64,000 bases of DNA from Phoronis australis (taxonomy: Eukaryota > Animalia > Phoronida): positions 1,163,736 to 1,227,735 of the forward strand of contig NMRA01000055.1 of the NCBI GenBank assembly GCA_002633005.1, given 5' to 3'. Position numbers and translations under genes: made by a program. Below are positions 1-64,000 of this stretch, in pieces (position 1 is the first letter of the stretch; every line of letters starts with the position of its first letter). The notes under the pieces are model-generated. The model had not been told where the DNA came from. It was given only the letters and a program-made list of their open reading frames with translations, and made no database searches.

Positions 1-13853
<13,853 letters not shown>

Positions 13854-31100: not shown

Positions 31101-31199
31101 AAATGGCAGTTCTCCAACGTCAGTTCACATTTTATTTTAATGCCAGTTTTGAGCGCTTGAAATTTATTTATAATGTCTGTTTCCTAGTAACATAGGGAC

Positions 31200-32684: not shown

Positions 32685-32977
32685 CTGGAATATAAACCGG
32701 TCATGTGACATATAAGCAATTACTGGATTAAGGAAAGGTGAGTCTGTAAACGAAACTTCCCCATTACCAAACTGTATGTTCCAATGAATAAGCAACGATA
32801 AATGAAAACTTCATGTGACACACAATCATGTAGTATCCAAGTTTACAAACTTTATCTTTATAAATCTATAGTAAGTTAAAGACCATGGGGTCACGCAACC
32901 ACTGATAAAAAATAGAACAACAATTATCCACTTATTTCACACAAAAACAACTGTTATTTTTTAATTTTTCAAAAGCN

Positions 32978-36500: not shown

Positions 36501-37397
36501 ACAATTAAGTGGTGGGGGTAGTCAAGTTTCAATCCCTGGCGGTCATGTTTCCGTCTCCAGCCAATCTGTTTTGTTTTGAGGAGGTCATGTTTTTATCGGT
36601 GCCTCGTTTCCATCTTCTGGTCCGGCGGTCCTGTTTTGTCGTGAGTTGGTCCGATTTGGACAACCGGCGGTCATATTTTGGGTACGGCAGTCATGTTGTT
36701 TCTCACTCGATAGTACCCATAATGGATAACAATTTTGTGGACGGTTGCAGATCAAGGCTGTCGTTCATACATAACAGGTAATTGACATTGACATGCAAGG
36801 TGAGTGAAACAGTTGTTTGTGATCCCTTCTCTTACTCCTACAACTGTTTCAGTTGGCCTGTGTAAGCAAACACTGCTTAAGAAAAGGTTTATGGTCCTAC
36901 GTGAAAAGATACTTGTTTTATTACACTCTATGGATAACTGAATAGCTGAGCCCTGCATGCCATATTCCACAGAAAGTCTGATGAGCGAAGGCTGTAAATG
37001 ACTAACCCAAGTCTTCCCTTGGAGGTATTGAGATACTTCTGAACCAGTCTGGGTCTTCAACACCAAGCATCTCTCGTATACTTTTAGTAATAACCTGGAA
37101 TATAAACCGGTCATGTGACATGTAAGCAATTACTGGATTAAGGAAAGGTCAGTCTGTAAACAAAACTTATTTCCCCATTACCAAACTGAATGTTCCAGTG
37201 AATAAGCAACGATAAATGAAAACTTCGTGTGACACACAATCATGTAGTATCCAAAGTTTACAAACTTTATCTTTAAATCTATAGTAACTTAAAGGCTATG
37301 GGGTCATGCAACCACTGATCAAAAATAGAACGACAATTCTCCACTTATTCCACACAAAAACAATTGGCAAACTGTTATTTTTTAATTTTTCAAAAGC
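33563..37397. repeat. Copy B of the ~3.8-kb duplication
   Basis: Colinear with 29203-32976 and continues into unique sequence after 37397. Confidence 0.9.
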
Positions 37398-40226
37398 TGA
37401 TAACGTTTTGTAAACAATGTGAATTTTAGCAAAATGTTATTTCATGACATCATTGCAAACTAAAATCCATACTTAAGAGTAATAGACTAAAATGTTGGTC
37501 GTCTAACTCTTGTGGAGAAATTTAACACAACGGAATTTCATTTACCGGCTCTGATGTGTTAAAAAAGTGAGGAATAACCATAAGTGACCAGATCCAAATA
37601 GAGATACACTGAACACTGATTTCAAAATTTGCAGTACATCTGAGCAGCTGTTCTCACACGGAGAGTTTTCATAATGACACTCTCTAGAATAATGAAAGCA
37701 GGAAAACGAGTTCCGCTTGATCCTAACTCAGATTTAGTGGACATAAACTCAATTACATTGTGGTTCATTAATAAAAATCAGAGAAATAAATTCCACTGTC
37801 AGTCCATCCCATATTGTTTCATTAGTTTAGTTCACTAATTTATTTCAACAGTTTGACATGGCTGGGATTAAAATTCTACCAATGGCTTGGTCACAGATAC
37901 TTTTTCACATTGAGAAATGTATGAAACACGATGTCCTTGCTCATCCACTGATATTTCAAAAGGCTTGCCTTTTTTCATGGTATTAATACATCCCACCATA
38001 CACATTAGTGGAAGTTTGCCAGGCTGACGATAATAGGAAGGACGTACATGCTCTTGATACCAGTAGGTTGAAACCTTATGTCAGCATTACATGAGATCTA
38101 TAGGTGGCGCTGAATGCATGTCCACCAAAGACCTGGTCGTTGACTGGTGAGATTATATGGCATGGCTATTTCGGAATTTATCTATTACATTAACAAACTT
38201 ATGTTGATGCTTTGAGGCAAATTAAAATGTTGGCAATTGTACCTTTATGTGCTCAAAATCTGTTACGCCGATTTTGGGGAGAGCTGAGGCCTCCATGATT
38301 ATAAGCTTCCTTCCATTCACAAGATTTGAAGCAAAACAGTCCTGTAAGAATAAAGCAACATGTAACAATTAGTTATCCATGAACCAACTTGCTGTACCGT
38401 GTCATTCCAATGGAGTTGCTCAAGGTAAGACCACAAAATGACACAACATGAACTGTCACCCTGAGGGTGCAGATTGATCCCAGAGCACAAAATATTATTT
38501 TTTTCACTAAAGGTGATAGTTAATTTCTTCCGAAGTTTGACCTCAGATTGAAGGTGCAATGGCACAAACTTCATGACAAACATTTATATTGTTATCAACA
38601 GTTCATTGACATTCTTGGTATTTTTGTGTTACCATTCATACATGGAAAGACAGCAAAACAACACTGGACATGCAGCCACAAAGACAGACAAACAGACAGA
38701 CCGACAGAAACACAGGCAGAGGGCAGAGATACTTTGTATCATGGTTATTTTTGTGAGTCAAGTGTCTTTGGAGAGACGTGCTGGAGGATTCAAATTTAAA
38801 GTTAGCACTACCAGTAACTTATACTTGGCCAATTTTGATGATTCAAATCAAATTCTGGATGTTCATTTTCTTAGAAGACTGATACACCCAGCAGAAATAC
38901 AAAAAGATAGAAACAATGTATAAGTATAGCCAGGAAAGGTTATAACTTGAACAACAACACGCAAAGAGGAGTCTCACGCTTAGCAGGATTGCTGCCACTT
39001 TCACAATAAAAACTGCATTTAACTTTGAGGTTGAGAATCTGGCGCCCCTATACGTGCCTCAGCTTGGTTTTCAAGTTCTCGATATTCACCCTATTGTGAC
39101 AGCAGTTTGAGCAAATCCACAAACTACAAATCATCATGCATTTCACATTGATTATCCCGAGCAACATATTGCACTTGTCTAGTTTCAATTAAATGGTACA
39201 AAACAGAAAAAAAATTCTCCATAGGCATTTTTGATGCTAGCCTACACAAAACATAGATCTAGCTGGCAGGCTAAGTCTCATTTAACCTTGATATAAATCC
39301 GTAAATATTGTTTGAGTCTTGAAGTTTGAAGCCAGGGGCTATGATGTCATACCATCTGCAGCACGCAGTGTTAAAAATGGAGAGTTTCTGATTTTGAGAA
39401 CTGAATGAGGGATTGCTTGAAGAACAGTTTGATAGCAGGAGTACGCTTATTTCACCACTCACTGAACGGCTTTTTCCAGGAACAAAGAGAGCGCGGTGCC
39501 CGAGCCAGCCACAGTTGCCATGACAGCATTGTGCGGTGAGAGCGAGATCCTGCTGAATTAAGTGTAATTACCCGACCATAAACAGTTTATGGCATAAACT
39601 GTAGTAAACAACTCTGCCTGCTAGCTATTATCTGTCCACTTCATTAGCTCAGATCTACCTCAATACAAGGGCGTGCTGAATAGGCATCCTAAATGCTGTC
39701 TGGAGCTTAGGGAATCTGAGCTGTGACCAGTGTAAGCGAGAAATTCTCCACATGTTGGAAGGAATTAATTACATCGACAGTCTCCTAAGGTGTCCCTCTA
39801 TGCGCAAAAGGTATTTATAACATGACTTTGATGTTTTAGTAAGTGTGATGCATAATTCATCAAAAAATTCCAGCGTATGAAGGTCCAATAGGAGCTACAC
39901 CATCTCTAGACATCTATAGAGACGGTGGTCACTATCTATCCTCTCGATGTATCAGCAATGGCAAGTCGGAGGCAAACTGTCAGTTACTAGGGCTAGCTAA
40001 TTTAAGCCCTGTTCACAAACAGAACCCATAACACCATTCCTTAACAAGAAGAATGCATCTCTCAAATCACCTTATAATACGGGAATCCTAACTCCTCTAT
40101 CCAATTGGCCACTTCGTCCACTGTCCAGAAAATGCAACTAGACACGCGATCGTCCTTAAAATCACCGTGTACATTGGTGCTTGACCTGCTGAGACTAAGT
40201 TTAGAATCGTTACTTGATTTCGACAT
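35586..40226 (-). CDS. SAMD15: Sterile alpha motif domain protein, SAMD15-like (about 160 aa)
   Basis: Four phase-consistent exons: 40226-40071 (MSKSS...CIFWTVDEVANWIEELGFPYYK), 38341-38243 (DCFASNLVNGRKLIIMEASALPKIGVTDFEHIK), 37094-37007 (VITKSIREMLGVEDPDWFRSISIPPREDL), 35725-35586 (GMYLEVKSKSGPHSDELT...stop). It has the SAM motif plus the RSIS.P.R..LG.YLE.KS..G tail I associate with SAMD15. Confidence 0.85.
38683..38712. repeat. Imperfect (ACAG)n microsatellite
   Basis: GACAGACAAACAGACAGACCGACAGAAACA. Confidence 0.6.
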
Positions 40227-40234
40227 ATTTAGGG

Positions 40235-40424
40235 GTTGTCACAGCAACAAATTTCAATCTGCCAACAGTTAAAGATCGGAGAGAAAACCGAAAACAAGTA
40301 ATAATCCCCTTGCAACAGGTGATTGCTACTGGGCAGCCATATTGAAACAAGTTGATTCCTTGGCAACTTCACGTTGGGCGGAAGTGCGTCATGGTAATTT
40401 GCGGGACTTCCCCAAGGGATTTCC
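40235..40424. promoter_or_regulatory. Divergent promoter with X-box, IRF-like, ETS and two NF-kB motifs
   Basis: X-box GTTGTCACAGCAAC (40235-40248) and GATTCCTTGGCAAC (40354-40367); IRF-like GAAAACCGAAAAC (40283-40295); ETS CGGAAGTG (about 40379-40386); kB sites GGGACTTCCC (40403-40412) and GGGATTTCC (40416-40424). All lie between two divergent start codons. Confidence 0.6.
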
Positions 40425-40735
40425 GTGACTAGCCGTCTGGCCTGTGTAGCACTTATTTGCCGTGAGCTGCTTTAATTCAGCAAGTCCTGTCTCTGTTGAC
40501 CAAATCACATGGAATAAACACACTTTCCGAGCGGAGATTTATGACAAGAAATTGGTCAAGTTGAACAAAACCGCTTTGTGAAGTCGTTGCGAACGTGGGA
40601 CTCTGCGGACTGAGGCTGATCCCGGCGATCGCCGCCCGGGACGCCGGAGGTCAACTAGATAATGAAAGTGTTCCGTCGTCGTTGCCTCTGACTATGATTT
40701 AGACAACTTCAGGACCGCAGCCGGAGAAAGCAATC

Positions 40736-43700
40736 ATGTGTAACTCTATTGGAATACTGTATCACGACTCAGACTCGGCACTTGTAACACAAATAGTCGA
40801 CATTCTTGAAGGACCATTTTTTACACAGTGCTTTTTCGCCGGTCGTGACATGGTAAAAGCCGATTCCATGACGTATGTCTTCGATTTCTTGGAGTACATT
40901 TTAAGTAAGTGTAGAAAGTTCGTCATCGTGCTTTCAGACAATTTCTTCTCGTCTCGCGAAACAAGACTTGACTTGATGTCCTTCTTTATTCGTTTCGACC
41001 AAGGAAACTGCAAGGTGTCCTTCATAACGGTCAACGGTAAGCCTAACATACCGTACCGAAGGTTGCTTGCGATGGAGAAGAGTAAAACGGCAAAATTCAT
41101 CAACTCCATCGAATATGAAGAATATCTTTCTCTGGTCAAAGCTATCAACAGAGCACTATCAGGTCAGTATTGCACAATTTTTAATTACATCGAATCGTCT
41201 TGTCAGTTATGATGAATCTAACCAACTTCCACGAAGCCGTAAGTTTTCTATAGTGAGCTGCGATGATCTGATCACAGTTGTGGAAATCAGAATTAAACGC
41301 GACTGGATGAGGAATATCACCGCGTTAAGGCCCGGCCTGGAGTGCCCCAGCCGCTGTAATAGGCCATTGACGGGGGAAAGTGTCGTCGTAAGATTATTAT
41401 AGTAAGACGCATTATTATATTAGTTAAGAGTCCCACTACGAGTCCAGAAGTCATACGCACAAGTGCCTGGTCGCACAGCCACGTGAAAAGAGCACTAGTG
41501 TGAGTCGTGGTATTGATTGCCAGGTTTGGCCCTCGATCTTCAAAGGCGTGCCGTGTGCCACGGGTATTTTATGGTTAGCATTTACACTATTCATGGATTT
41601 CCATTCACAACGCCACTTTTGAGGTACTAATGAAGAAATATGAAAATCCTAATATAAGGCACACGTGACTCTGGTCTCCACGCAGTTAATGTACGGCGTC
41701 AGTGAAATGCTGACAATTATACTGGTCCAATTATACTGGTCCAATTAGATTTAGCAGATGAATGAAAATTTAGGCTCTCTCAGAATTAATTATGTCTTTC
41801 ATCATAGTTTCCAGCCACCAATTTAAAGGTATTTTGCCAGCTACGACTTGAAATAACTAGTCATTCATGCGCGCACCCAGGGGGGGGGGCTCGGGGGAGT
41901 GGGGTTCAAAGGAGCCCGCCATTGGGAAAAGTGGGCAAAAAGGTCCGCCTGCGAGAAATAAAGTCCGAGAAAATGAGACAAAAGTCCACTAAACAAGCAC
42001 AAAACGCTCACAGAGGTGCGCGGGTTTTTTATTTTTTTTAGTCTGCCGGCTATTGTGTTACCAAAAAGTTCCACAACGTTAGAAATTCGAGCCCCCTATA
42101 AGGCCTGGGAGCGCGCATGTCCTTCCAAAGCGCCTATTTTACCATAGTTTTTTTGCCTCAGAATCTGCCGAGGCAACTGCCCTGGCTGCCCCCCATTGAT
42201 AATATTGCCCTAGTCGATTACATCTCTGCGTAAAATTATCGTTGGCCAAATAACTGAACGTTACGCACGTAAATAGTAAATACGTGCGTGAATTAATTCT
42301 TGCTAGTGGCGTAAATTAATTATGAACGGCTTCAATTAATTATTTGCGACGCAAATTATTGAAATTTTAAATAAGTAAATTAAATCTTGTTAGTGGCGGA
42401 AATAATTCTTATTAGTGGTGTAAATTAATTATTTTCGGCGAAAATTAACTTTTAACGGAGTAAATTAATTCTTTGCGGCGAAAATTAATTATTTACGTGC
42501 GTAACGTACACAACTTTGGCCAACGATATGAAAGCAGCCCTGGTATCTTCTTGTACACCCTTTTTGCTTACTTTACCACCTGAGTCTTTCGCGCCAAAGG
42601 TCAAACCGCTTTTTTAATTTCTTCATTACACTCTTTCTTGACGTCATTCTTAATTGCTGTCGCATTGCATACAGCGCCGATCCAATTTCGATTATCTTTG
42701 AGGTGCCCTTATGCCAGCAACTACGAGCAGTAGACAAACTGGTTTAGTAAGGAAAATAAACGAGGAGTTGCACCAATTACACTCGTCATATCGACGAGTA
42801 CATGTAGTTGCTGAGAGTTCCAGAAATTAGCGTTGCATGCAGACTTACAAATCGCTGTATGCCGGACAGACCTTAATGGCGAAGGCAACCTTTTTTCATA
42901 TCATTTTCAGCAAAAATAGGGTTCGTTGATTATCCCAGACATATTTTTCACTTATTTACAGCTTTTCGTAATTTAATTAATTACTCGTCCTCTACTCCGG
43001 AAGTGATGTTTTAGGAGGCAAGAATTTCGCGCCAATTTCTTTTCATACAGTCAGACTGTACCCCTGTTACATGTACGTTCAGCTAACGACCATGCCAGTA
43101 ATAATCGATGACCTTTTTACACATGGGTTCATAAACCCACCAGAGGTGTGCTTTTACCTGTGCACTGTGGTTACTAATTGACCCTATTCCTTGATTCAGA
43201 CGAAGCTGGCAGAATCTCCGAATTTCCGTTAAACAAATACAAGTTTGTATTCGGTAGCTGCAAAGATGGAGATGTTCATGAAGGTGGCCCTACTGGTGAG
43301 TCGTTGCAAATGGCTGATATTGGTGTGTCTTTTCTAACGATAGCTCATTTGCGGGCGAGAACTCTTCGATTCGTGCGAGACAATTTTAATTGTTTTCCGA
43401 AATCTTGAACATGTTTCACGTGAACTCAGTTTTTGTGGAATTATTATCTGTGTTGTATCAAACAGAATTTTTCCTAAAAATTACACAAAAACCGCAAATG
43501 TGGTCTTTCGTTGAATTTTGCCAATTTTTAAAGTTATTTCGAACACTAGAAAAATAGCTAAAGTTGGCTTATTTAGAACACCGTATCTCGGAAATGGCTG
43601 CTCGGTTTCATTTGAAACTTTCAGATATTTTGGTTTCTGCAATGTTCTCCTAAACGCTCAAAATTTGAATTTTGTATGAGACGCTTTTAAACATTAGGAC

Positions 43701-46700
43701 TTTTGTGCTTTTATGAAAAAAAATTAATAGTTGGACAAAACAAAAGCCGATAATATAGAAAGTGGTAACAGTTTTTAAGATTTTATCTTGAACATTTAAA
43801 TCGGACAAACTGTGGTCATTATATTGGTACCATTGTTAGCTATGAATAGCCACCGACCTCGATTTCAAAGAATGTTTGGCAGACAGCGAAGGGGTTTCAT
43901 GATTTGTAATAAAGTCACAACAACGCTAATTATTTTGTTTTTCACAACTCTGGCCAAAACCGATAACTACAAGCAATAATCATGGCCAGTTCCTTCTAAA
44001 TTCTGAAATCACGTTCATGTACAAGGCGGGTTCATAGACATTTAAATAGTTTTAAGAAGAATTTTGTGATATGCAATTTTTGTTTTGGTCCTTCGTGTCA
44101 CGCGTGGTTGCCAGAGCGCGAGAACATTTGATTGAAGTTTTGCTTAGATGTAGTTGCATTTTCTTCATCCAAGAACTGTTCGAACGTTGAAAATGACCTG
44201 AGAATATGTTTTTTCCCAATGTAGTCTCCGATCCACACGTGGTTTTGGACGTTCAGAACACTGTAGTGACCTTCAAAGCTGGCTTCAAGAAAGCCATATT
44301 GGGCGAAGGTGTCCAACTTTGTTCTTCCGGCAACCATGACTTTCAGGTTGTCGTTGAGGTAAGTGTATTTGTGTTTCTTGTCTAATTCTGTGCCACAAAA
44401 ATCAACTTTTTATCTTGTTTCCGCGCTGTTTTGCACTACTCTCCACCGATACACTTGCCATTGGCGCTCTGTATATGTGGACCCGATCGAAGCAGTGTGC
44501 GTAATTTCTTCCAAAGGCAAAGTTGTCTCCCCTACGAACCTCTGTAAGGCTACTGATAATATCCGAAAGAAGCCGACCCTCTTTACTAAATGGAAGCACC
44601 CGAACACAGCAGTACTGTGAATGCTCCTACCAACAGTAGTAATTAAGCATTGCATAAAAGTTACTGTCAATATTCCTCAAAATTCACTAGTGACAGCTAG
44701 AGAGTGCCTAATGAGAACCAACACCCTGCTTTGTCAAGGACCTAAGCACAGGAGAAACCCGACTTCTCTATACTTAGAACGATATTGGAATTCCTGTTGG
44801 CAAACAGTTCTTTGACATGATTTATAAATGTGTGCCTTCAGTTTGAATGTGAGTTGTGACCACGTTTACGTAGCATCGCTTTTAACAGTGCCGGAGGTAA
44901 TTTTTCTCCGGGTATTTTTCTTCACGGGGCCTAAATTAATGTGAAGAATTTTGAACCCATGAAAAATGACCTCCACATCCGCGAAAGCTTGTCCTGTCAG
45001 TGTTCAACGATTCCCCCGCCGTGTGGGAGTTGGGACAAGTAAATATACCCGCAACAGGTGATCTGTCAATAATGTTCGTCTGGGGGTGACCTCCTCGGGG
45101 GAGGGGGAAGAGGCTACTGGTGTGGGTTAGCCATCGAAAACTAAAACCCCCGAGACGTGGTGATCTGGGTCAGGTGGCGGTTAGACTATTCTTAAACGTA
45201 TAGGACTATTGTTGACCTGGGTGTCGGATTACTCAACACCCAGCCAAGGAGCTAGGCGCCAAGGATGTGTCAACGGGGTGGGGCAAGGATAAGGGTATTG
45301 GATATGTGGGGCTTGCGGGCAAGGAATAATGTAAAGGTACGTATGTCCGCGAACAATATGTCCATAAGAACTACAGTGTATGTTCGTTAGGCGCGACAAT
45401 TGTGCTCAGTGGATCGGGAGCATTTGCACTCGTGAGAGGGGAACAGCGTGCGTCTCTCACGGTGAGAGATGATTGAGTCCTGGCGCAGCAACATGGGGAC
45501 GGGCTTCATATCAAAGTAAGCGAGGGGGTGCAAGAATAGGGAACGGCGTGCGAGGGTATAGAATGGTGTTTCAGTGCAGGCTTGGAACCAAAGTGCGGGA
45601 GCAGAGATAGTCCCTGGTGGTCTCTGAGATCGAGAAACGTGTCTGATAAATTGTCAGTATAGAACTGTCAGAGAGTACGCAATCGACAACGCGGTGTGGA
45701 TGGATGATTTGCATCAGAGAGATAACGTAGCGGCGTGCAGGCCAGGAATATGACGTGTAGGAGCTGGGTTGCTCTGTTTACAAACAAAGAAAATTATGTC
45801 CATGACCACAAGGCTGAGTAGAAAAATGTGGTGCTGCCTCAATTGGATCGCAGGACTATGAATCCGGCCGTTAGAGGGTCAAGTGTGCGTGAGAGAAGAA
45901 TTTTAAATTTCTCGGCTGTGCGGCGCGCGGTGTATGAGATGGAGGGATGTGGATGATGTGTGAGAGCAGAGCTTATGTCTTTGCGAGCAAAAAGGTACAC
46001 AAAACGCCGAAAATGCATGGTGCTATATCGGGGGACTTCGTTCGTCATATGGCCATCACTGTTACTGCATGAGCTAGGCCTACTGCATATTAAGAGCCTT
46101 TCTGTTTTTTTTTTTTTAATTTAGGAACTTAAGTCTCCTCTCGACATTTTGTAATTGTTCTAGGTCCAAATATGGATTTTAATGAAGGTGTTTCTGCAAT
46201 CAGATATCCCACTGCATAGATAGTGTCTCATACCATTCAGCTTGAATTTGACCCGCGTGGGCCGGACTACAAATGATGTAGTGCCCGTGCAGCTTCCATG
46301 CTTTTTTCCTAACAGGGAACAACGTGATACTGTTCATTTTCTCTCGTGTGTAAGAATGTGTAACCGAGCCTGTTTCTATGTAGTGTCAATGAACTAACGT
46401 GTGAGCTTAATTTCATCCAACCGTACTTCACTACTTTTTGGACTTAGGAACCGGTGTAAACAAGGTTAGTTTGCGAATCTTCCCGCATTATTAGATGCTT
46501 ATCTTTATGGTGTTTGTATATCTGTAGTCCCTTGCACGTGTGTACAATGTACGTTAAGCTGTTTATCTCTTATATGGAATATAGATCGCTTCTTTTTAAA
46601 ATGTTCTTGCTTGCAGACTCTCTCAAATTGGCATGCGCAGTTGTATTAGACGCACCAACGCAGCAATAGGTGGAGTGAGATCTCAAAGGGACATTATCGG

Positions 46701-49700
46701 AAGAAAAGGCAATTTTACATAAATTAGCTGCATCGCTGTTTCGAACCCATTAGCTGCGCTGTAGCAGCTGGACGGCCCTTCCAGCAATGATTCCAAATGG
46801 CGTCTTTTGGTCGTAAAATCGATAGTGGACCTTTGAGACCCACATAGCAATCGTCCTATTGAACTGTCTAAAACACTGTGACGGTTTTTAGTTTGCCTGG
46901 GATGTCATGGTACTCGTTATCCAATGGCTTTGCGGCTAGTTAATCTCTCTCCGCTTCCTGTTGTGATATTCGGCATGTCGATGTGAAACGTCCCATCTAC
47001 CTCCATTTTGAGAATATACCGTTGAACTTCCGGTTGAGGGTATGTGTCAAGGTCACAAACTTGGGTGCGGGAGTAACGCTAGCACTTGCCGAGTCACGTG
47101 CAGTGAAAAGTCATGGCTTTGTTGCCATGTCAGTTTTGGAAGTGTGGCGAGAATCTTGATAGTGTGAGGTCTTGCTTTTCACCAGCAAAATCTTGAATTA
47201 TCCTGCAAAACTTGTAAAAACTGTCCCCTTGCTCTTACCCTTTGCATGCCGCTGTTTCAGCTCGATTGGCGAATATTTATTTTAAGATGTTGCTCCATTT
47301 TTACGCTTGACCATGCATTGGGGAGCACGGACTGTGGCTGTGAGGTACAAACCCTCATATTATGGGAAGGAGTTGTACCCCAAACTTGAATAGGACGGAC
47401 GAGAAATGGGAAGGCAATACCTATGACGCCAAAAGCGGTGGAACTAGATACTAATCTTCATGAGTAACATAATTCCATCGCTGACGATGTGGACCGTTAT
47501 TTTGCAGAGGCGGATCTACAGGGGGGGGGGGGGTTCAGGGGGTTTAAACCCCCCCCTCGGGACAGGATCAAAAATAAAAACTGGAAAAAAAATCGCCAGA
47601 AAAACGAAATTAGCTACTAAAAATCCAAAAAAATCTTACACGGGAGGAGGGAAACACTCTCGCGACCTTCCTTCCCCTCGGCGCTACGCGCCTCGGATTC
47701 TCTCGAGTCCTAAACCCCCCCTTACTGAAATCGTAGATCTGCTACTGTTTTGATATTGGTAACCGCTTTGATTTCAAAAGAACTGGTATGGTTGCCGATT
47801 TTGATGTCATGCTAGTGTAATTAATCAAAACCCCATCCTTCACATCTCTTGTCTTTCTCATTTCTGACTCGTCCTTCCCGTCCACAGTGTATGCTTCACG
47901 CTGCATGATGAAGCCTTATTTAGCCATCCGTGGTGCTAGGTTTAAGTGACATGCTCCGTTGTTTCGACCTTCCCCAATGGTGCCGCAACACACCTGTCCT
48001 TGCATTGCTCTGTACAACACGAAGCTGTAATTCTTGTTAAATATAGCCTCAGTTTTCCTCAGGTGCCTTATACACTTTTGCGGTTCTTAATGGCGAGTTG
48101 TGTAGCATTACTTTGTACGCGACTGGTACCAAGAATTTTAATAAAGAAAAGGCCTTAGCATTTCATTTCTTTTGCCAGAGAATGTACTTGTCAGCGGAAG
48201 TCATGAAGTCTGTCACAGATTCCAACCCAGCATTCGCTCCCCTGATTTCCAGCGTGACGCCGTTGTACTTTTTTTCTGTGAACCCGGCAAGAAATGCAGA
48301 AAATGGCTCCAGTAGTAAGCTCGACCATCCGGAGTTGCAAGCCCAGCTGCAGCTGTGGTCTCTGCGAGATTCTAAGGCATCCAGAAACTATCGAGTTATG
48401 TTCTCCGAGTCTGTCAATTTTTTTGGTGGAAATTGGTGCGATGCAACGGACAGATCTCTGTGTACTTTGAATGGAAAAGCAGCGTGCTTTGAACTGGTCC
48501 TCAACAAGTATGGCGTGTAAGTTCACAATGGCACCAATTGTTTGGCTTCGTCAGTTCCGCCGAGTCAACCAGCTAAGAGGTTTTCGCCTGCGTTCGGCAA
48601 CGCTAGGATATCGCTAAAAGACGTGATTTTGGCTAGATTTTAGCGAGGTCCTAGCGAAGGTCATAGTGTTACTGAACTCAATCGACAACGTTTTGTGGGC
48701 CTAAGTCGTTATTGAGAACCAATCAAAGGGCTTAGCCCTTTGACTCGGCGTGTCACGCGAAGTACTGTACCGCATTCAAGTGCACCAACTGTACAAAACT
48801 TTGAAATGTCTCATGCGCAAATTATTTACTCGAATGGACTTAGTTGTATTGAACTTAAATTCCCGATCATAATGCTAGCCTGCTTACTAAAGTTTTGTTT
48901 GTGAAATTGGAAAGCTCCAGTGCAAAATATACCCAAATCTCACTTGCTTTACGTTTATAAGCCTTAGGTGTCAATGTGAAAGATTCACAAGAATTCCGAG
49001 TCTGTTCATTTCAGAAACAGGTACGTCTATTTGTCGTTTTTAGCCTGCAACGTTTTAATGTGCTTAAAAGCACCGAGATCATAATGTTCCGTGGGTGACT
49101 TTAATTTTGAGGAAGTAAATCTAGGGTATAGCTTTTGGTAGTTGATTCAAACACATTCAGGTAAACTCATCTCTTTTCAATCCTAGTATTCTTAATTGGT
49201 GCTCGATATTTAACCGCAAGCTTGCAACTATTTTCCTAGGTATTTACTTTGCGAGGTAGACCAGTCATCCTTGGAAGACATGACCAAAGTGTCATGTATC
49301 CTCCAGGCCATGAGCGACTATCTTTCGCAAAACTATCAGAGGTTTTCTGCCATGGTTAGCTCTGACCGGCGGAAGGTTACCTTTTGCGCCATGAGGCCGT
49401 CAAATGGCAAGTATCTCAACGCAGTGTGCACGACTGAGTCGCGGTGGCATCGGCAGGCATTCATACGAGTACCAAAATCAACCATAAGGGGTACTTTGAA
49501 TGTGATCATCGATATAGAGGCCGGCTGCAAACGTATGTGCGTTCCTGCCACGTTTGACCTGCACAAGCAAAGCGTCATTTGCAAAATTCTGTCCTTGAGG
49601 GACATTTGCCATCAAGCCAAGATTACCTGTTGTATAACGGAGAAGAAAGACGTGGTATTCGAGTTTAAGTATCAAATGGTATGTGTGCATTTAAAATTGT

Positions 49701-50707
49701 TCACGATTTTATATGGTTACTTCAGCACAATAACGGATTTAGGATATCATGCTGGTTGGCACCATTTTGTCTCGTAGACAAGCACGCTTTGCAGCGCCCG
49801 AAAATGGTTGAAATACCTTTTTATAGAAGGTAGAAGGTGAAACGTGACAACTACACTACATACTAAAAACTACTTTGAAAAGGTAAAGTCTCCCTTAACC
49901 CTATATATATATGTATATGTATATACTATGGCCGTAGCTTACAGTATTACGAGGAAATGTCACCTGTTTATTTTACCAGGCTAGTCGCTTCTTGCGCTCA
50001 CCAGAGCTAACACGGTCGTTGATGGCTTCCAGCATCTCTTGCAAAGGAGACTGCAACCAAAACAGCGAGTACGAAGGTGGGTACAATGATCCGCGCTCAC
50101 TTGCAACAGATCAAAAGACGGGTTTGCGCGGTCGGTTTCTCTATTAAGACAGAGAAATAGATCTGAGTTGTATTAAAATTGATTGCGATGATCTCTTGGT
50201 TACAATACACATGTATGTATAGTCTACGAAAATCAACATTTGTACTAATTTCTTTAGCCGTGTTTGCAGTCAAATAAAAACGCACATTTTAGGCATAATT
50301 CCAAAAATCGCCCCGTAGGCGTGTAAACGGCATTTTATTTCAAGGAATGAAAAAGTCTATACCCCAATGTATCCCTGCAGTGTACACCTATACTGTATTA
50401 TTGTACTTTTTGTACACTTCGTACATGTAGGCCAGATGTTAATGCGGAGTATCGTATTTTATTCCTTGTTCCAGAATCATCTTCAAGAAGAAAACATTCG
50501 ATACCCGACCTTGACGCACGTGCTAGAAGCCTGCTGAAATACGGTAGTCGTTCGCCTTGGGACAGAGGCAAGAAGGAAAGAAAGCGTGATTCAAACGAAT
50601 CTCCAAAATATAACCCAGATGGTGTTATTACGGCACGCCATCTGACAAAAGCCGTGTCAGTAGACGATGAGGGCTATAAAGCCATTCGACAGTTGATTTA
50701 CCCATAA
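40736..50707 (+). CDS. Uncharacterised cytoplasmic TIR-domain protein, paralogue 1, with putative ZU5/UPA-like C-terminal module (about 581 aa)
   Basis: Exons 40736-41162 (TIR: ILYHDSD..V..I..ILE...C.FAGRD...CRKFVIVLSDNFFSS), 43200-43295, 48063-48516, 49240-49678, 49980-50076 and 50475-50707 join through GT-AG junctions into one 1746-nt ORF. Exons 1-2 are supported by the paralogue. Exons 3-6 rest on open frames, splice signals and phase. Confidence 0.75.
41866..42119. mobile_element. MITE, CATGCGCGCACCCAG family (other copies 54542-54785, about 56456-56706, 62816-63063, about 52798-52956)
   Basis: TIR CATGCGCGCACCCAG...CTGGG(T/A)GCGCGCATG, with a shared internal AAGTGGGCA.AAAGGTCCGCC. Flanking duplications of 5-6 bp in some copies (GAAAG; CAGGTG). 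Confidence 0.8.
42239..42526. mobile_element. MITE with TA target duplication and internal GCGTAAATTAATT subrepeats
   Basis: TA-TCGTTGGCCAAA...ACGTTACGCACGTAAATA at the left end and TATTTACGTGCGTAACGT...TTTGGCCAACGA-TA at the right end. Confidence 0.75.
44098..44830 (-). pseudogene. Decayed antisense coding sequence of unknown family in intron 2 of TIR paralogue 1
   Basis: ORFs 44670-44410 and 44337-44098 are in the same frame, separated by one stop. The translation (YTYLNDNLKVMVAGRTKLDTFAQYGFLEASFEGHYSVLNVQN) aligns with 63170-63540. Confidence 0.6.
45001..46070. mobile_element. GC-richer, strand-skewed insert, possibly a solo LTR or other retroelement fragment
   Basis: Abrupt shift to a G-rich plus strand, starting TGTTCA at 45001. 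I found no TSD and no recognisable ORF. Confidence 0.3.
47505..47747. mobile_element. hAT-like MITE
   Basis: TIR CAGAGGCGGATCTAC...GTAGATCTGCTACTG with subterminal poly-G and poly-C tracts. Confidence 0.7.
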
Positions 50708-53810: not shown

Positions 53811-55265
53811 ATTGGGCCAAGTACCCAACTACCAGGTAGCAGTTGGATTCTGAGGTACAATAGGCCGTTCGGTTTGCCTCATTCTGGAGAGTTATTTTTA
53901 TGTCCTTCACATGACACCGCGTCAAATAAAAATCTAGGCTTCAAATCAGCAGGACGTGAAGGGTCTCTGGGTCACAGAGACTATCCGTCATTTCCAGAGA
54001 GTCGTTTGATTTGTAGGTAGTTCTCCCATACTGTTGAAATTACTGCGCATTATTGACAGCCGCCGTTGTTTGCCAACAGTTTGGAAGTACCACGAAGAGA
54101 CGCTTTATAGTTTCCGTAACTGCACGTTCACTTTCATCCTCCAACCAGAATGGCCTAATGAGCCCATGTTTCGATCTTGTCAGGTGATCGTTATACTATT
54201 TAGTAGTGGAATGAAGTGGCCTCTGAGTTCATGTGTTTAGACAATAAAACAGAGCTTCATCAGACTACCATGGGTGACGCACCATAGGGCGCGGGGTGGG
54301 GGACTATAGCTCCCCACTTCTTTTAGTGACATAGGCGGCGCACCATAGGAGCCTTTGGGGCTATATCCTCCACTTATTTTATTGCTGTGCCCCCATGAAT
54401 ACCATTTGTCATCCAAGAAGTCGGGCCACAACAATCATCTCAGTTTGTCTCAACATGCATGCACGTTTCCGCAGAAAACGTTATTTCTGCAACTGTTCAA
54501 AGCATCTTGTAAAAAACCTGCTCAAAACGTTCACACAGGTGCATGCGCACACACATGGGGGGGGGGCTCGAAGGAGTCCCCCCATTTGGCGAAGTGGGCA
54601 TAAAGGTCCGCCCCTGAGAAACAAAAAGTACGAGAAAATGGTACAAAAGGGCACTAAATAAGCAAAAAAAGGTGCACCCGGTTTTTTATTTTTATTTTTT
54701 TTAGTTCGCCCGCTTTTTCGTTACCAAGAGGTCCACTACGTCAGAAATCCGAGCCCCCCCATATTGAAGGCTGGGTGCGCGCATGCAGGTGTACACTGGT
54801 TTTCCTAATCAAAACACAATTGTTGACGTGTTCATGTGCGTCATGTTTTTGGTCACCCGATACATGTACATGTACATAGATGTATTATCGCCACGGTCAT
54901 TTCAAAGGTCAATCAGTCTTATCTATCAAGGATGGACAAAGAACAATAGGCCGATACGTCACGTTGCGATAAAATTCCCTGAATTCGGATTTAGCCGAAC
55001 GTGAAAGTACTGACGCATAACTATACATTCTGTTTCTCTTGTGCTGCGTCCTCTCGACATCTAACAACAAGAAATACATATACTGTACGTCAACCTAAGT
55101 CGGTCAACAAACGAGGCAACGTTGCGACTGCGCAGAAATGGGTGAGTAACTTACATGTATATCGACTGTGAATAGCGACAAAATTTGGTTCACAGCTATG
55201 TGCGAATCCATAGGAATTATGTGTCACGACTCGGACAAAAATTTCGTGAAAAACGTTGTAGACGT
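53811..55265. repeat. Copy A of a ~1.45-kb near-identical duplication (probably the alternative haplotype); ends in the first 68 nt of the TIR paralogue 2 CDS
   Basis: Colinear with 55760-57176 and ends exactly at the N at 55266. Confidence 0.9.
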
Positions 55266-55759: not shown

Positions 55760-57108
55760 ATTGGGCCAACCACCAAACCACCAGGCAGCAGTTGGATTCT
55801 GAGGTACAATAGGCCGGGCGGTTTACCTCATTCTGGAGAGTTATTTTTATGTCCTTCACATGACATCGCGGCAAATAAAAATCTAGGCTTCAAATCAGCA
55901 GGACTTGAAAGGTTTCTGGGTCACAGAGACGATCCGTCATTTCCAGAGAGTCGTTTATTTGTAGGTAGTTCTTTCATACAGTTTGTACTGTTGAAATTAC
56001 TGCACATTATTGACAGCCGCCGTTGTTTGCCAACAGTTTGGAAGTACCACGAAGAGACGCTTTATAGTTTCCGTGACTGCACGTTCATTTTCATCCTCCA
56101 ACCAGAATGAAGTGGCCTCCGAGTTCATGTGTTTAGACAATAAAACAGAGCTTCATCAGACTACCATGGGTGGCGCACCATAGGGCGCGGGGTGGGGGGC
56201 TATAGCTCCCCACTTCGTTTAGTGCCGCGTCGCCCATGTTCACATAGGCGGCGCACCATAGGAGCCTTGGGGGCTATATCCTCCACTTATTTTATTGCTG
56301 TGCCCCCATGAATACCATTTGTCATCCAAGAAGTCGGGCCACAACAATCATCGCAGTTTGTCTCAACATGCATGTACGTTTCCTCAGAAAACGTTTTTTC
56401 TGCAACTGTTCAAAGCATCTTGTAAAAAACCTGCTCAAAACGTTCACACAGGTCCATGCGCACACACAAGGGGGGGGGGGGGCTCGAAGGAGTCCCCCCA
56501 TTTGGCGAAGTGGGCATAAAGGTCCGCCCCTGAGAAACAAAAAAGTACGAGAAAATGGTACAAAAGGGCACTTAACAAGCACAAAAAAGGTGCATTCAGT
56601 TTTTTATTTTGATTTTATTTTTTTAGTTCGCCCGCTTTTTCGTTACCAAGAGGCCCACTACGTCAGGAATCCACGCCCCCCATATTGAAGGCTGGGTGCG
56701 CGCATGCAGGTGTACACTGGTTTTCCTAATCAAAACACAATTGTTGACGTGTTCATGTGCGTCATGTTTTTGGTCACCCGATACATGTACATGTACATAG
56801 ATGTATTATCGCCACGGTCATTTCAAAGGTCAATCAGTCTTATCTATCAAGGATGGACAAAGAACAATAGGCCGATACGTCACGTTGCGATAAAATTCCC
56901 TGAATTCGGATTTAGCCGAACGGGATAGTAGTGACGCATAACTATACATTCTGTTTCTCTTGTGCTGCGTCCTCTCGACATCTAGCAACAAGAAATGCTT
57001 ATACTGTACGCCAACCTGAGTCGGTCAACAAACGAGGCAACGCTGCGACTGCGCATGTAACTTACATGTATATCGACTGTGAATAGCGACAAAATTTGGT
57101 TAACAGCT

Positions 57109-60100
57109 ATGTGCGAATCCATAGGAATTATGTATCACGACTCGGACGAAAACTTCGTGAAAAACGTTGTAGACGTTCTTGAAGGACCATTCTTTAACTC
57201 AAACTGCGTGTTCGCCAGTCGAGACATAGCATTCAGCACTGGGCCGGTAACATTCCAGTATGAATTTTTAGAACACTTTCTGCAAAATCTCACTAAGTTT
57301 GTGATCGTTTTATCCAACAATTTTCTCTCATCGCACCAAAGTCAGCATGATCTGGAAGCCTTCTACTGTCGCTTCGGTCAAGGAAACTGCAAAGTTGTGT
57401 TCGTGAAGAATGACGATCTGATCGACTTGCCGTTTAGGCTTCAAGCACTGGAGAACAAACAGGCAAAATTCATCAAAGCGAGTAAAGACAGAGGGCATCT
57501 CGATGTAGCCAAAGCTATCTGCAGAGCGTTATCAGGTAAAAATTTTCCGTTACTATTTGCATCTTTCAAGCTGTGCAGAACATACCTACTCTTTTAGATG
57601 ACCCCAACAAACCCCCGCCCCTCATAACGAATAATTTCAAAGTACATTTTTCCTAGAAATATTTACTTACTAAGTGACTGATTTCTACCGATATTTTCAA
57701 AAATAGTACGCCAAACATTATTGGCATATATAGACGCTTAGGAGAGAGCCCAGGTTGCCCGCCCCACATCCCCGAGCGTGTTAAAAACGCCGCCCATGAC
57801 GGTGTTGGGGTTAAGCGAACAATTTTCTCGCTACATCCTAGTGGCGCCGCCAGTATACTAAACGATCCCTAAAAAGTTTAAAAGGCGTTTGAGATATATG
57901 ATATTATAGCCCCAAAAGCAAATAAACATTTTATCCAGGTTACGAAATGTAAGTGTTCATCAGTCTATTTAAAAATCTCTATGTTTTATTGCAAACGCGA
58001 CATAGAAGTATGACCCAGGTAAACAGTAATAAACTTATCGAACTTAAAGCATAACTTGTTCCGTTAACTAAAAGAGGCAGGGAATGCGAAAGCTAGTCAA
58101 GCATAACGAAAGTACCCTCTTGCAACATCCATTAATGAGTAATTCACTTGCCCCTGTGAGGAAATTGTCAGAAAAAAATCATAAAATTCACTATTTTTGA
58201 AATACGCGCTAAGGAAAAACTATGTGGTCACCACACAGTTTCTAATTTCCCTCCCATTTTTGATAAATGCTCGCATGCACTCATAATCAGTTGCTTGAAG
58301 TCGCTTGAAGTCAAAGATCACATTTCCATGTAAAGGAAACTTAAACCAAAAGAAAAATGCTTAAATTCTACCAACATAAATTTAAATTCTATGCTAACAA
58401 ACCCTAAAATTCCCAGGTGAGCAGGTTGAATTCTGTTTCAGTGGCAAATAACGACTTACAATATTGCAATTTAGTCTGTTTATTGCGTTCCAGGCCGCTT
58501 TAAGTTAACATTTCACTGAAGATTTGAGACTCTAAACAAATTTCATAGACAAAAGGAAGCAACTCCGATATTATTCCTAAGAAATTCCTCAGGAGGCGCC
58601 ACTCTCTTCCGGTACATATCGAGTTGAGCATCGACGAGTAAGCGCGTGTAGAGAACTAGCAAACAAATCAATTTTCACATTGTGGGGAGCCCGATAAAAA
58701 TTCAGATTTCAAGTAAGTGGCAAACAGCGCTTGATGTTATATTCATGTCACCAGTGGCCTACGAATACTGCTTGTATGTTTCGACATAGAACTGTGATCT
58801 TTCGGATTATTCCTGAAGATAACTTTCATCTCTAGCATCGCGACTTCGCAAAGCTGCCGATGCCAGGGTATCAGTGGACTTCAAAAGCGAGGCCACGACC
58901 TTGCAAATTACTGGATAATTACCGTCTGACATCATCGATAACAATGTGCTTCAAATTTGACCATATATCGATACAAAGTTCTCAGGAAGACAAACGCGAA
59001 GTTTGTGACAATCATGAATACGTTGGAAATGGCTTAATTGCTACCATAAGCAATCTATTCGATATATTTCAAAAGTATTGGTTTTATCAGGCCTAGTTTT
59101 CCCGTCTACGTGCTGGGAAAACACACGTGTATTTGTTTGTTCAAATTACAAATAAAATATTCAAGATTGTAGACGAAACTTCAACGCAGTGAGAATATAG
59201 GCTACTGAACGTGTTGCCTGCCATAGCAGACATCAAATGGAATTAAGAGTAGTGAACAACTATTGTTAAAGGAGACCGATATGTGATCTTGGGAAGACCA
59301 GTCTACGGCTCATATTTAACGACCAATCACAAGCCAGAATAGATCGGAGCAATCTAGGCTCTGCAATTAATTACGGTACAATGTACTTGTTCAATGTAAA
59401 ACACCGAGCGCCGCTAGCAAATAGTTGCGATCCGGCCGATAGTAAAACCAAAAAGGCTTGTGTTTGGTGGCAACTATTGCATTGCTGGTTGCTGCTTGTG
59501 CGCGAGATAGGATATCTTGTGCAAGTGTTAGCGGTCAATAAGACGTTTATAGTCTTTGCGCAAACCTGAATTCAACGAAAACTTAATCCCACGTCATTTG
59601 ATTACCATAACGTCAACTGTTGCTCAAAGACAAACATGTTTTGAAATTTGGGGTGGGTTGCATAAATCTTTAAAACTGATGAGTTGGACAGGTTTGATTG
59701 TAGCACAACTTCAAATGTCTTGTCCGACAGTTGTCTGAAGTGTCACGTGGTAATGCGACGCCACTGAACTTTGCTACCCAGCATACGACGTTTGTGTAAC
59801 TGGAGCGCGGTGGTCTATCGGGGATCACTCATATTGACAAGGTGCCCGCAGGCGTGTACCAAAATTTGCTGCCAGAGAGACCCCCTATCGTAGGTGCCAG
59901 GTCTGCTTATTCTCACCCCCTTTTGGGGGCTGAGGCCAATGCAGTGGGTCTTTTGCGGGGACGAAATGAAAATTTAGAGGACTACTGGACCCCGCGCAGG
60001 TGCTGCAAAACTGGTTGAAAAAGTACTGCCTACCTGCAATTTTTGGTCACGCCTGCGGGCGCCTTGTCAATATGAGTGGCCCTTTTGGGGGTGGTCTACC

Positions 60101-60583
60101 AACAGAATGGCCGCTGCAGCTGAATGTCACTGCGAAACTTACTGTTTTACACTTTCATTACAAGATGTGAAGTGTTATCTGTTTGAATCATATTCCTTTC
60201 ACTTTGGCGAGAATTTCTCTGTGTCCTGAATTGGTATAAACAAAAGAAGTTTGAGACCTTACAAACACATAGCAACTGATTACAGTATGTTGCGTTGATA
60301 TTCAGTTATTGCACTGCAGGCAAAGAATGTCATTTTATGAACGTGATTTATAAGCATTTGATACGAGTCGTGTCCCCTTTTAAATGCCAAGGCAAGGTTT
60401 TATGCTTTAACTCGCACGTGGGCAAACGTTTCCTGAAAAACGGAATTTGCGTTAATCTGTGGTTAGGTAATAGTATTTTGCTTGATTTAGATGACGCGGC
60501 TAGAGTGTTAGAGTTCCCGCTGCAAAGTTACACGTTTGTCTTCGGTGATAAAGAGGGCGCTGTGCACGAAGTCAGTTTGGGTG
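57109..60583 (+). CDS. TIR-domain protein paralogue 2 (exons 1-2 only; the rest is presumably beyond the window)
   Basis: Exon 57109-57535 is 427 nt, the same length and phase-1 donor as paralogue 1, with about 71/142 identical residues by hand alignment. Exon 60491-60583 (DAARVLEFPLQSYTFVFGDKEGAVHEVSLG) matches EAGRISEFPLNKYKFVFGSCKDGDVHEGGPT. Confidence 0.8.
59826..60078. mobile_element. MITE with CACTC termini (CACTA/EnSpm-like)
   Basis: TIR of about 38 bp: CACTCATATTGACAAGGTGCCCGCAGGCGTG...CACGCCTGCGGGCGCCTTGTCAATATGAGTG. No TSD is evident. Confidence 0.7.
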
Positions 60584-63169
60584 GTGAGTAATGACTGTGA
60601 ACACATGATCAGTTTGTTTATTCAGAAATCATCTAGTAAAGGATCATTCAATGGCAAATAGATAAAAATTACATTTTGAGTCTCTAGACGAGTGTTGCTC
60701 TCTTTAGTCTTTTTAAATATTAAAATATTTGTAGGAAGGCCACATCATTTTTATTTAATTATCCAATTAGACGCTTTGTAACATGATTATGTTATGTTTT
60801 TGGACTTATTGTCTTCCATCAGATTCCGAGAAAGAACTTGGTCAGAGGTGTGTTTCATGAAAAGTAACTTAAGACAGAATATTGCACTTAGGCTTAGGCT
60901 TTGTATTGCTGAATAAAATTTTGGCCACGTAATTATGAGCGCATCACAGTCTGGAAGTAATTCATAGAAAATATCTCGGTAACTAGCAGCCCATGTGTAC
61001 ACTGTATGCTCTCAGCCACTTTCCACTTTTGCTCACTTGAGATTTAATTGCTTTACAAAAACGTGGAGTGCAGGACCTAATTTCTGTCTCAAGCCACTTG
61101 AAAGTCATTTTTTATGAACCAGGCCTGTAGTCACGAACCTTGAACATTTTTAAACGCGATTTACTGGCTCTAAAATGGTACGGCGTATTTACAAAGCGTA
61201 TCGGAGAGATTTGAGCTAGACGCATTAACCGTTGCGTGCGAGCGAATGATCCCCCACCACCATTTCGTTGCCAATTTTTCAGAAATCCCCGTTCCTGTAG
61301 TATTGTAGTACTTTTCCACAAAAGGCGCCTGCGTGTAACGGAATATTTGACAATTGAGGTTTAAAACGGCACAAATGTGTTCAGTGCAAGTAGCGGATGC
61401 GGTATAATTGCAGTATTTTTGCACCACGCCGTAACACTACAAAAACGGCATGAAACAAAGCGAATACGGAAAAACTGCAGAGGTTGACTTGTGGGCGAAG
61501 TACTTGACTTTCACACAGCGATTTTGTGTAGCCTTACACATGTCATCCCGAGTTCTTCGCATAAATACACAGCCCAGGTGCGGAACTAGTATGACTGTTG
61601 AGCTTGAACGTGGGCCAAATGATTAAAGTTAAGGTACAAATCCCCTTTTTATTTTTTGCAGTAATTGACATATACCTTCGCTATTCATCGTAACTTGAGC
61701 TTGCTTAATTGTACGCGACGCTCTGGAACACGGCTCAATCACGTTTTTGGTGATCAGAGTCTGAATTTTCAGCGCGTAAGGACATGAGCGGTGTTTCTCA
61801 GTTTTCCATGAGCCAAAAGTGGAGATGCCTGGGATGTGCGAAATAACTCCACACTCTCTTAGTACAGCTGTCTTTGGGCCTTAGCGTCAAGCGGATGTAC
61901 ATCCACAAACTAGGAACTTGCGAAAAAATCTAAATTGGTGACAAGCTCCGTTTGTATTTATTAAAACACTTTGGTTTCCGTGTGGTTCGAATGTGGAGTA
62001 ACTGGAGGTCACAATACTGATGTCTGTGTAAACAGTGAAGGATTACCCCGTTATACCTACATGTATTGCTGATACACTGCTTATGACGTCAAACACACGC
62101 AGCTACTGACATGTAACCTCGCTGGTTCCCTGCGTGCCGCTAGGTGGGGCGGTAGCCGCGCCAGCACGCAGGTATCACTTAAATTTCCTCTGTAAATTTT
62201 TTTACACCGGCGTTTCTGATTGGCTAGTCGATTCGTCAACAGGCAGCGCTTTGCGTAAACAAACTGGCATGGCTGATGGACTGAAGTGTAAATGTGGTCT
62301 GTTGTACAGACAAACCGGTGCTTAAAATTATGTTCAGGAAATGTGAAGCCTAGAAATTGTGATTGAGCCTTTTCGGAATGCATCTTTCTACTGTCGATGA
62401 CTTTTGTTTACAATAGTGTCCTTATACAGTATGAATAACACACCGTAATATGTGTTTATTGTGCATGTATGTGCTTCAAGCACGCAGCTATTAAACATCA
62501 CTGCACAAACGAAATAGTTGCTGCGACGCCACTTACATGACAAGGCTAAAATCATTCACAGTCTGCCATTTTTTCACGGTGTTGTAAAGCTAACCAATGA
62601 CTGCAAAGATTACACCGACCAATGCTAAAGCGCGTGCCACTGCGTGATACCTGCGTGCGTGCTGGCTGGGCTAAGCACGCAGGGAACCAGCGAGACATGT
62701 AACCTGCGCGCGGGCATTTGAGCGCGAATTACAAATGGCGAGTGAATGGCTAGACTTTTAAAAAGACGTCTGAAGATTATTGATGTCAGGAATTTAGTAT
62801 ACCAGGTAATGAAAGTATGCGCGCACCCAGCCTTTAGTTTGGGAGGGCTCGAATTTCTGACCAAGTGGACCTTTTGCTAACAAAAAAGCTTGAGAACTAA
62901 ATAAAGACGGGGTACCACCTTCAGCACTGGGAACTGTGAGTCTGCGCCTTTTTAGTGGACTTTTGTCTCGCTTCCACGGACTTTTGTTTCTCTGAGGCGG
63001 ACCTTTTTGCCCACTTCGCCAAGGGGGGCTCGTTCAAGCCGAGCCCCCCTGGGTGCGCGCATGGAAAGGGCTAATTTGTTAGCATTGAAACCGGATTTGT
63101 ACTTTTAACTGCACCAATATATCCATCACTATCTCATTTCATGAGCGAGGTTTACAAAATGTCTACATA

Positions 63170-64000
63170 GGGGCCTACTCTTATATACATTGTCTTTTTC
63201 AAAGAAGGCTGTCGCCAACATGACATTTTGGACATCCAGACTTCAGTAGTGACCTTCGTACGTGGCTCTCCAAACGCCATACTGGGCAAGGGTGTCCAAC
63301 TTTGTTACTCAGGCCACAACAGACTAGATATCGTCGTTGAGGTAGGCATAAGTATTGTGACTTTACTTTGAAATGTCGTACTGTTTAGACATGTCTCGTT
63401 TGGTGTATCCTCCACAATTGTTTTCACCCTAGGATTGATTGATCTAACCATTTATCTGTGTTTGCAATCTAGTTATATTCCTCTGTCTTCAAGGGTTAAT
63501 AGTCACACACTTTCAGAATACGAAGACGAGAGCGCTTCACGAAACACTACTGCCTCCCGTTCAGGAACGCTAGGACCACGCTAAAAAGCAAGACTTCGCG
63601 AGATTACGTGAGATATTGCCGTGCATTTTAAATAAGAACACGTGACTTTGAATAGGTTTTATCTAGGTACTAGCGTAGGTCCAGTAGCGTCTACTGAACG
63701 CACGCCAGCCTCCCGTTCAGTAACGCTAGGACCTCGCTAAAAAGCAAGACTTCGCGAGATTACATGTACGTGAGAAATTGCCGTGTATTTTAAATGAGAG
63801 CACGAGATCTTGACTAGATTTTAGCTAGGTCCTAGCGTCTACTGAACGCACGCCAGGCTTCTACTTCACGCCTGTTATTCCCGGACATGTTTAGGGAGTA
63901 TTAATCAGCATGCCGTGTGCCTGTTTGGGGTTTGAAAACCCCGTACCACTCAGTAGGGACTTTATTTGTTACCTATCAAAAGGGTCATCTGGAATCGTGG
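63170..64000 (-). pseudogene. Second, more decayed copy of the antisense coding sequence, in intron 2 of TIR paralogue 2
   Basis: The minus strand gives YAYLNDDI*SVVA*VTKLDTLAQYGVWRATYEGHY*SLDVQN and, further upstream, VKRSRLRILKV...KQLWRIHQTRHV. It has several stops and is interrupted by a MITE at 63552-63858. Confidence 0.6.
63552..63858. mobile_element. Tandem dimer of a ~155-bp MITE (short relative near 48586-48660)
   Basis: GCCTCCCGTTCAG(G/T)AACGCTAGGACC...GGT(A/C)CTAGCGT...CTACTGAACGCACGCCAG occurs twice, head to tail. Confidence 0.75.

Follow-up and report, generated by a model that had tools for sequence, protein, structure and literature searches.

In UNC5B, PIDD1, CARD8, and NLRP1, a death-fold effector follows the UPA of a ZU5-UPA module (PMC3210808, in excerpt), and the UPA promotes the formation of CARD8 and NLRP1 filaments (PMC11874512, in excerpt). 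In BCAP (PIK3AP1), a TIG domain dimerises the N-terminal TIR, and TLR signalling is negatively regulated through this dimerisation (PMC7128310, in excerpt). Diverse TIR architectures are already well known from invertebrates (PMC2575513; PMC7075850). The present study concerns a TIR gene at positions 40736 to 50707 on the forward strand of a 64,000 nucleotide stretch of Phoronis australis contig NMRA01000055.1, referred to here as the window. It is a genuine animal gene that is transcribed and has a copy in tandem; the pair is an orphan one, and the ZU5-UPA fold proposed for the region after the TIR is unproven. The best reading, given a probability of roughly 0.45, is a TIR protein that would act non-enzymatically on TLR/MyD88-type assemblies, scaffolding or dampening them under the control of a beta-sandwich module; this module may be a ZU5-UPA that has degenerated and can no longer be cleaved. 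It is also likely to be lineage-specific and cytosolic, with no membrane helix.

The gene model is based on three stranded RNA runs with the same species label (X1, X2, and X3), about 18-19 % of each run being used, with GT..AG junctions called at 97 % likeness and a listing threshold of three reads. These support a chain of seven exons encoding 587 residues, with reads across five of its six junctions: 43295>44225 (2, 1, and 5 reads in X1, X2, and X3, respectively), 44358>48179 (0, 0, and 10), 48516>49240 (0, 6, and 3), 49678>49980 (2, 4, and 9), and 50076>50475 (5, 6, and 16). An alternative junction, 49020>49240, has 0, 0, and 8 reads. The initial annotation had instead proposed six exons and a frame of 581 residues. 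That frame does splice in silico and the motifs quoted for it are present in the DNA, but an exon at 44225-44358 had been overlooked, exon 4 starts at 48179, and the junction 43295>48063 is absent from those listed in the three runs. The stretch 48063-48178, containing 'GALYTF..CSITLY', is therefore intron by the RNA reads rather than exon. The features of the gene are as follows.

40736..41162, + strand, exon 1: residues 1-142, start ATG and divergent TIR (Pfam TIR_2 E 1.8e-4; PDB matches MyD88/TLR2)
43200..43295, + strand, exon 2: residues 143-174, conserved, either a linker or the first part of the beta region; donor with 8 reads; kept in the paralog
44225..44358, + strand, exon 3: residues 175-219, the overlooked exon; junctions with 8 and 10 reads (the latter in X3 only)
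44359..48178, + strand, intron 3: often retained; includes the falsely called exon part 48063-48178
48179..48516, + strand, exon 4: residues 220-332, with junction reads; perhaps the C-terminal half of a ZU5 that has degenerated
48517..49020, + strand, exon 4 extension: to the alternative donor 49020; in-frame stop directly after residue 332
49240..49678, + strand, exon 5: residues 332-478, beta-sandwich-like domain, possibly UPA-like
49980..50076, + strand, exon 6: residues 479-510, low-complexity linker; 15 and 27 junction reads
50475..50707, + strand, exon 7: residues 511-587, then the stop; a basic tail that is likely disordered by composition; 27 junction reads; no Pfam match

Exon 1 has a sense-strand RNA depth of about 5-8 and an in-frame stop immediately upstream of the ATG. 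The transcribed leader (40509-40702) contains four short upstream open reading frames of 2-9 codons, which could dampen translation.

The N-terminal TIR matches Pfam TIR_2 with E values of 1.8e-4 in the gene and 4.4e-5 in the paralog, both below the gathering cut-off. When a profile of the two TIR copies was compared with PDB, all ten matches at E<=10 were the TIRs of MyD88 or TLR2, the best being MyD88 (E 1.3e-3), and the TIR assignment of the initial annotation is supported on both counts. In the alignment with TLR2 and P0001, Asp79 occupies the position of the WxxxE glutamate in helix C, which is presumably the catalytic NADase position; helix C reads E75..D79, and both paralogs have Asp instead of the Glu and are without the Trp. 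The BB-loop Pro is likewise missing from both copies in this alignment. The catalytic Glu is required for TIR NADase activity, and mutation of the BB-loop Pro abolishes TLR4 signalling (PMC8635717, in excerpt). Because both residues are missing, the TIR is predicted to be non-catalytic and may not signal canonically. The TIR is at Met1, downstream of the in-frame stop, therefore there is no N-terminal death domain ahead of it as there is in MyD88.

The tandem copy was located by tblastn and blastn.

57109..63341, + strand, tandem paralog: exons 57109-57535 (TIR), 60491-60583, and 63208-63341

The window ends before exon 4 of this paralog, the remainder of which is beyond it. Between the two genes, 111 of the 216 aligned residues are identical, and exon 3 is 52 % identical to its counterpart at 63208-63341. 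The ratio of non-synonymous to synonymous substitution rates (dN/dS) is 0.23 overall, with 0.19 in the TIR and 0.28 in exons 2-3, although these NG86 values are rough, since dS is near saturation. Exonic variants in the reads, 17 among the 40 of 54 variants listed, are synonymous in 10 cases and non-synonymous in 7, for 386 synonymous and 1375 non-synonymous sites; in exons 4-7, 9 are synonymous and 5 non-synonymous among the variants listed. Based on the low dN/dS and the synonymous excess, the TIR gene is under purifying selection.

For the region following the TIR, metagenome contigs were scanned with a ZU5 motif, giving 78 loci, and all seven frames scanned with Pfam match ZU5. This reference set was enlarged by homolog search with 30 proteins, including UNC5C-like proteins of Dendronephthya, Saccoglossus, and Saccostrea, and with 34 bacterial ZU5-like domains, selected among the 71 motif matches that were in frame in 120 loci of GTDB. 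With hhalign, residues 283-368 are colinear with the end of ZU5 and the first UPA strands over 82 columns (20 % identity, E 0.15; E 0.11 for exon 4 alone), and a glocal aligner reproduces this register. This weak colinear resemblance is with UNC5C-like proteins of invertebrates, at the end of their ZU5 and the start of their UPA. Of 42 sub-profiles, the best has z 3.8, with p 0.048 after window correction (400 shuffles), and on the best-window measure 251 of the 259 natural control segments score lower; the comparison is lenient in that the controls are mostly GC-rich bacterial frames. It had been claimed that ZU5 motifs run through this region in order. Of the five, 'GALYTF..CSITLY' is intronic, whereas the C-terminal motifs do align in order, at borderline significance only. 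In the protein supported by the RNA reads, the hallmarks of the ZU5 N-terminus cannot be recognised, and no single exon has a Pfam ZU5, UPA, or FIIND match. The proposed ZU5-UPA fold is thus left with borderline colinearity at residues 283-368, and its ancestry in ZU5-UPA can be held tentatively from the sequence, at somewhat less than even odds.

Single-exon AlphaFold models were of low confidence (pLDDT 37.5 and 34.8), with the start of exon 4 modelled as two helices, and fold searches with them returned only generic beta sandwiches, with no clear match. Faint similarity does not in itself refute a ZU5-UPA, because the match between CARD8 and UNC5B is itself very faint, at 12 % identity and E 0.028 (PMC3210808, in excerpt). 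In autoproteolytic ZU5 domains (PIDD1, FIIND), an HF/S or SF/S motif stands before the last ZU5 strand, according to the same excerpt. K329-Y330-G331 aligns with this position; if the alignment holds, the protein would therefore not self-cleave. The suggested analogy with UNC5, in which the module gates its effector, is weak on topology, as the TIR lies ahead of the module, and the position of the death domain is taken by a tail that is likely disordered.

Elsewhere in the protein, Pfam gives no Death, CARD, or LRR match on any exon at E<=10, and the best 19-residue Kyte-Doolittle mean is 1.18, so that no transmembrane helix is predicted. Without an LRR or Ig match in Pfam, the layout is not that of a TLR or IL-1R with ectodomain and transmembrane segment. 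Residues 479-587 are polar and basic and have no Pfam match, hence no death-fold domain follows the putative UPA. The description of a soluble protein without death domain, LRR, or anchor therefore agrees with these results, as do the beta-rich middle, the basic low-complexity tail, and the failure to match any named family. Exon 3 has a conserved GVQLC, which presumably lacks the core Gly of a RHIM motif, and there is no Pfam RHIM match. The C-terminal part found no relatives among three sets of candidates (0 of 250, 0 of 1241, and 0 of 89), and no usable lead came from Atlas. If residues 143-478 are not a ZU5-UPA, they are a constrained, beta-rich stretch, about 335 residues long and with no relative detected, that is joined to an immune domain.

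The scaffold or dampener reading is favoured by the best TIR matches, which are to scaffold-type TIRs (MyD88 and TLR2). A number of results weigh against it. The whole seven-exon chain is seen in no single RNA run and the junction of exons 1 and 2 (41162>43200) is absent from the junctions listed, with a depth of 2-6 near the end of exon 1; this junction is supported indirectly, by the same boundary and phase in the paralog and by the read-free unique sequence of intron 1. Pairwise comparisons with ZU5 give p 0.06-0.9, with the reversed control equal or better, and the whole ZU5-UPA profile gives p 0.15 and 0.53. The ZU5-only profiles reach z 0.6-1.8, as against 8-15 for genuine animal ZU5s (the latter with the bacterial profile alone). 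The incorrect six-exon chain scored slightly higher (z 1.6-2.6), therefore chance sequence easily mimics ZU5, and an alternative register, with the ZU5 start on residues 324-363, scores similarly.

If the resemblance to ZU5 were due to chance, the middle would be a beta-rich module that is either unrelated or new, perhaps of the Ig/TIG-like kind known from BCAP, BANK1, and Dof. This is unlikely, yet it would account for the fact that no whole-domain test gave ZU5 or UPA a significant score and that single exons have no Pfam match to these domains or FIIND, and the two helices modelled with low confidence at the start of exon 4 recall the BCAP TIG, which ends in a helix-loop-helix (PMC7128310, in excerpt). 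Against it, the borderline ZU5 signal recurs in one register, and for a BCAP-like module there is neither a Pfam DBB or TIR_3 match nor a BCAP chain among the PDB matches at E<=10. At the other extreme, and in line with the initial annotation, the protein could be a true TIR-ZU5-UPA autoinhibited sensor or adaptor, in which the TIR is held off until a ligand or modification releases NF-kB signalling or cell death. The 82-column alignment and its best sub-profile point this way, as does the easy test against natural controls, and the lengths fit a ZU5 of about 150 and a UPA of about 125-140 residues (PMC3210808, in excerpt). It is nevertheless distinctly unlikely: in UNC5B, PIDD1, CARD8, and NLRP1 the effector lies on the other side of the module, no cleavage motif is present here, so that there would be no release by autoproteolysis, the TIR is without the Pro linked to signalling, and the N-terminal ZU5 motifs were not detected.

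A further explanation, and a very improbable one, is that the working product is mainly a short TIR isoform of 227 residues, or that the gene is decaying, with the C-terminal exons mattering little. Intron 3 has a sense-only depth of 1.5-6.8 over 44512-47016, compared with 6.6-8.6 in the exon 1 bin, and is covered at roughly one-third to two-thirds of exon depth; unique sequence in introns 1 and 6 has no coverage. In X1, 7-8 reads lie immediately within intron 3, and none is spliced at 44358>48179. Read-through meets a stop after eight codons (TAA, 44383-44385), giving the 227-residue TIR and stub, and in the paralog after nine codons, in both cases with a short hydrophobic tail. In X3, the truncating donor 49020, with which the frame ends at residue 332, outnumbers the canonical donor by 8 to 3. 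On the other hand, these read counts are small, RNA with the retained intron may be nuclear or a substrate of nonsense-mediated decay, and exons 4-7 have an open frame, precise splicing, and the synonymous excess described above. The truncated forms may be substrates of nonsense-mediated decay, unfinished transcripts, allele effects, or TIR-only decoys, the counts being small.

Two overlapping frames at 46905-47040 (+) inside intron 3, LSPLPVVIFG and KRPIYLHFE, are loosely like ZU5 motifs. No splice junction is listed there, and the resemblance is probably chance.

As a scaffold or dampener, the protein would bind other TIR domains in TLR/MyD88-type assemblies and would cap or redirect signalosomes, much like BCAP. 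Because it has no death domain, it would not itself recruit IRAK-type kinases. By analogy with the UPA in CARD8 and NLRP1 and with TIG/DBB in BCAP, the beta module would set the oligomeric state or location, and retention of intron 3 would tune the amount of full-length protein. A more specific form of this proposal, which is rather unlikely, is a lineage-specific family with an uncleavable ZU5-UPA, no death domain, and a non-catalytic TIR upstream, in which TIR filaments would be nucleated or capped by UPA-driven clustering, and retention of intron 3 would decide whether the full regulator or a decoy with only the TIR is made.

With MyD88/TIRAP-type adaptors, the protein shares solubility, the absence of the catalytic Glu, and the best TIR match; unlike them, it has its TIR at the N-terminus, followed by about 335 beta-rich residues, and is without a death domain or a BB-loop Pro. 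With UNC5B, UNC5CL, PIDD1, ankyrin, and the FIIND of CARD8 and NLRP1, it shares the weak colinear similarity at residues 283-368. It differs from these in whole-domain similarity, which is not significant, in having no death-fold domain after the UPA, in K-Y-G for HF/S, and in the upstream TIR. BCAP, BANK1, and Dof are likewise cytosolic, with an N-terminal TIR and then a beta-sandwich module, but here single exons have no TIR_3, DBB, or ankyrin match in Pfam and no BCAP chain was found in PDB. The orphan TIRs of invertebrates (group 18, PMC7075850; ecTIR-DC, PMC6321704; both in excerpt) are similar as lineage-specific cytosolic TIRs with unusual partners and tandem duplication. In contrast, no homolog of the present architecture was found among 1.84 billion representatives scanned with HMMER using the TIR profile; the one match was a generic double-TIR protein.

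No TIR-ZU5 fusion is announced in the titles and the beginnings of abstracts of the papers listed for ZU5 with TIR. In excerpts of PMC8195603 and PMC8260672, ZU5 occurs with TRADD-N and NACHT, not with TIR, and in sea urchin it is found only among NACHT partners (PMC2575513, supplementary table 4, by column counts). The term 'ZU5' is not in the main text of PMC7075850 or PMC2858798, nor in one supplement of PMC8662601. Since invertebrates shuffle TIR among many partners, the interest of one further orphan combination is moderate. Should the middle be a ZU5-UPA, the clustering module of CARD8, NLRP1, PIDD1, and UNC5 would be tied directly to TIR signalling, a pairing absent from the portions of the surveys checked, and the gene would offer a simple test of whether UPA-type clustering drives TIR as it drives CARD.

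Among the ZU5 references, two loci on metagenome contigs (L011:367-3333 and L053:212-2782) are intronless UNC5-like genes of Ig-transmembrane-ZU5-(UPA)-Death layout, to which octocoral proteins are closest. HFS or HFT at the end of ZU5 is kept in L011, L053, L063, P0006, and P0007, so that self-cleavage may occur in some UNC5-like receptors of invertebrates. Among bacteria, GTDB genomes of Myxococcota, Gemmatimonadota, Acidobacteriota, and others contain at least 34 ZU5-like domains (L079-L198), and in one Gemmatimonadota group the protein ends directly after HFS.YA.AW.

The neighbours of the TIR gene, an SGK3-like kinase, IFT52, and a SAM-domain gene, fit an animal genome. The kinase gene (3581-9710, - strand) encodes an SGK3-like protein kinase with a PX domain (Pkinase E 1.2e-13, PX E 0.005). 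It is head-to-head with IFT52 (20196-26078, + strand), four exons of which match IFT52 Pfam models. The SGK-IFT52 neighbourhood is also present in vertebrates, therefore the pairing may be old microsynteny. Two direct duplications with 92-93 % identity (29203-32976 and 33563-37397; 53811-55265 and 55760-57176) each end exactly at one of the two N bases of the window (32977 and 55266), and probably represent an overlap of alleles at gaps in the scaffold. The second includes the TIR fragment at 55198-55265, which is probably not a third gene. The SAM-domain gene (about 37870-40240, - strand; SAM_2 E 0.027), presumably SAMD15-like, is divergent from the TIR gene. Opposite-strand reads are present at 40003-40503 in X1 and X2, and the two genes may share a short bidirectional promoter.

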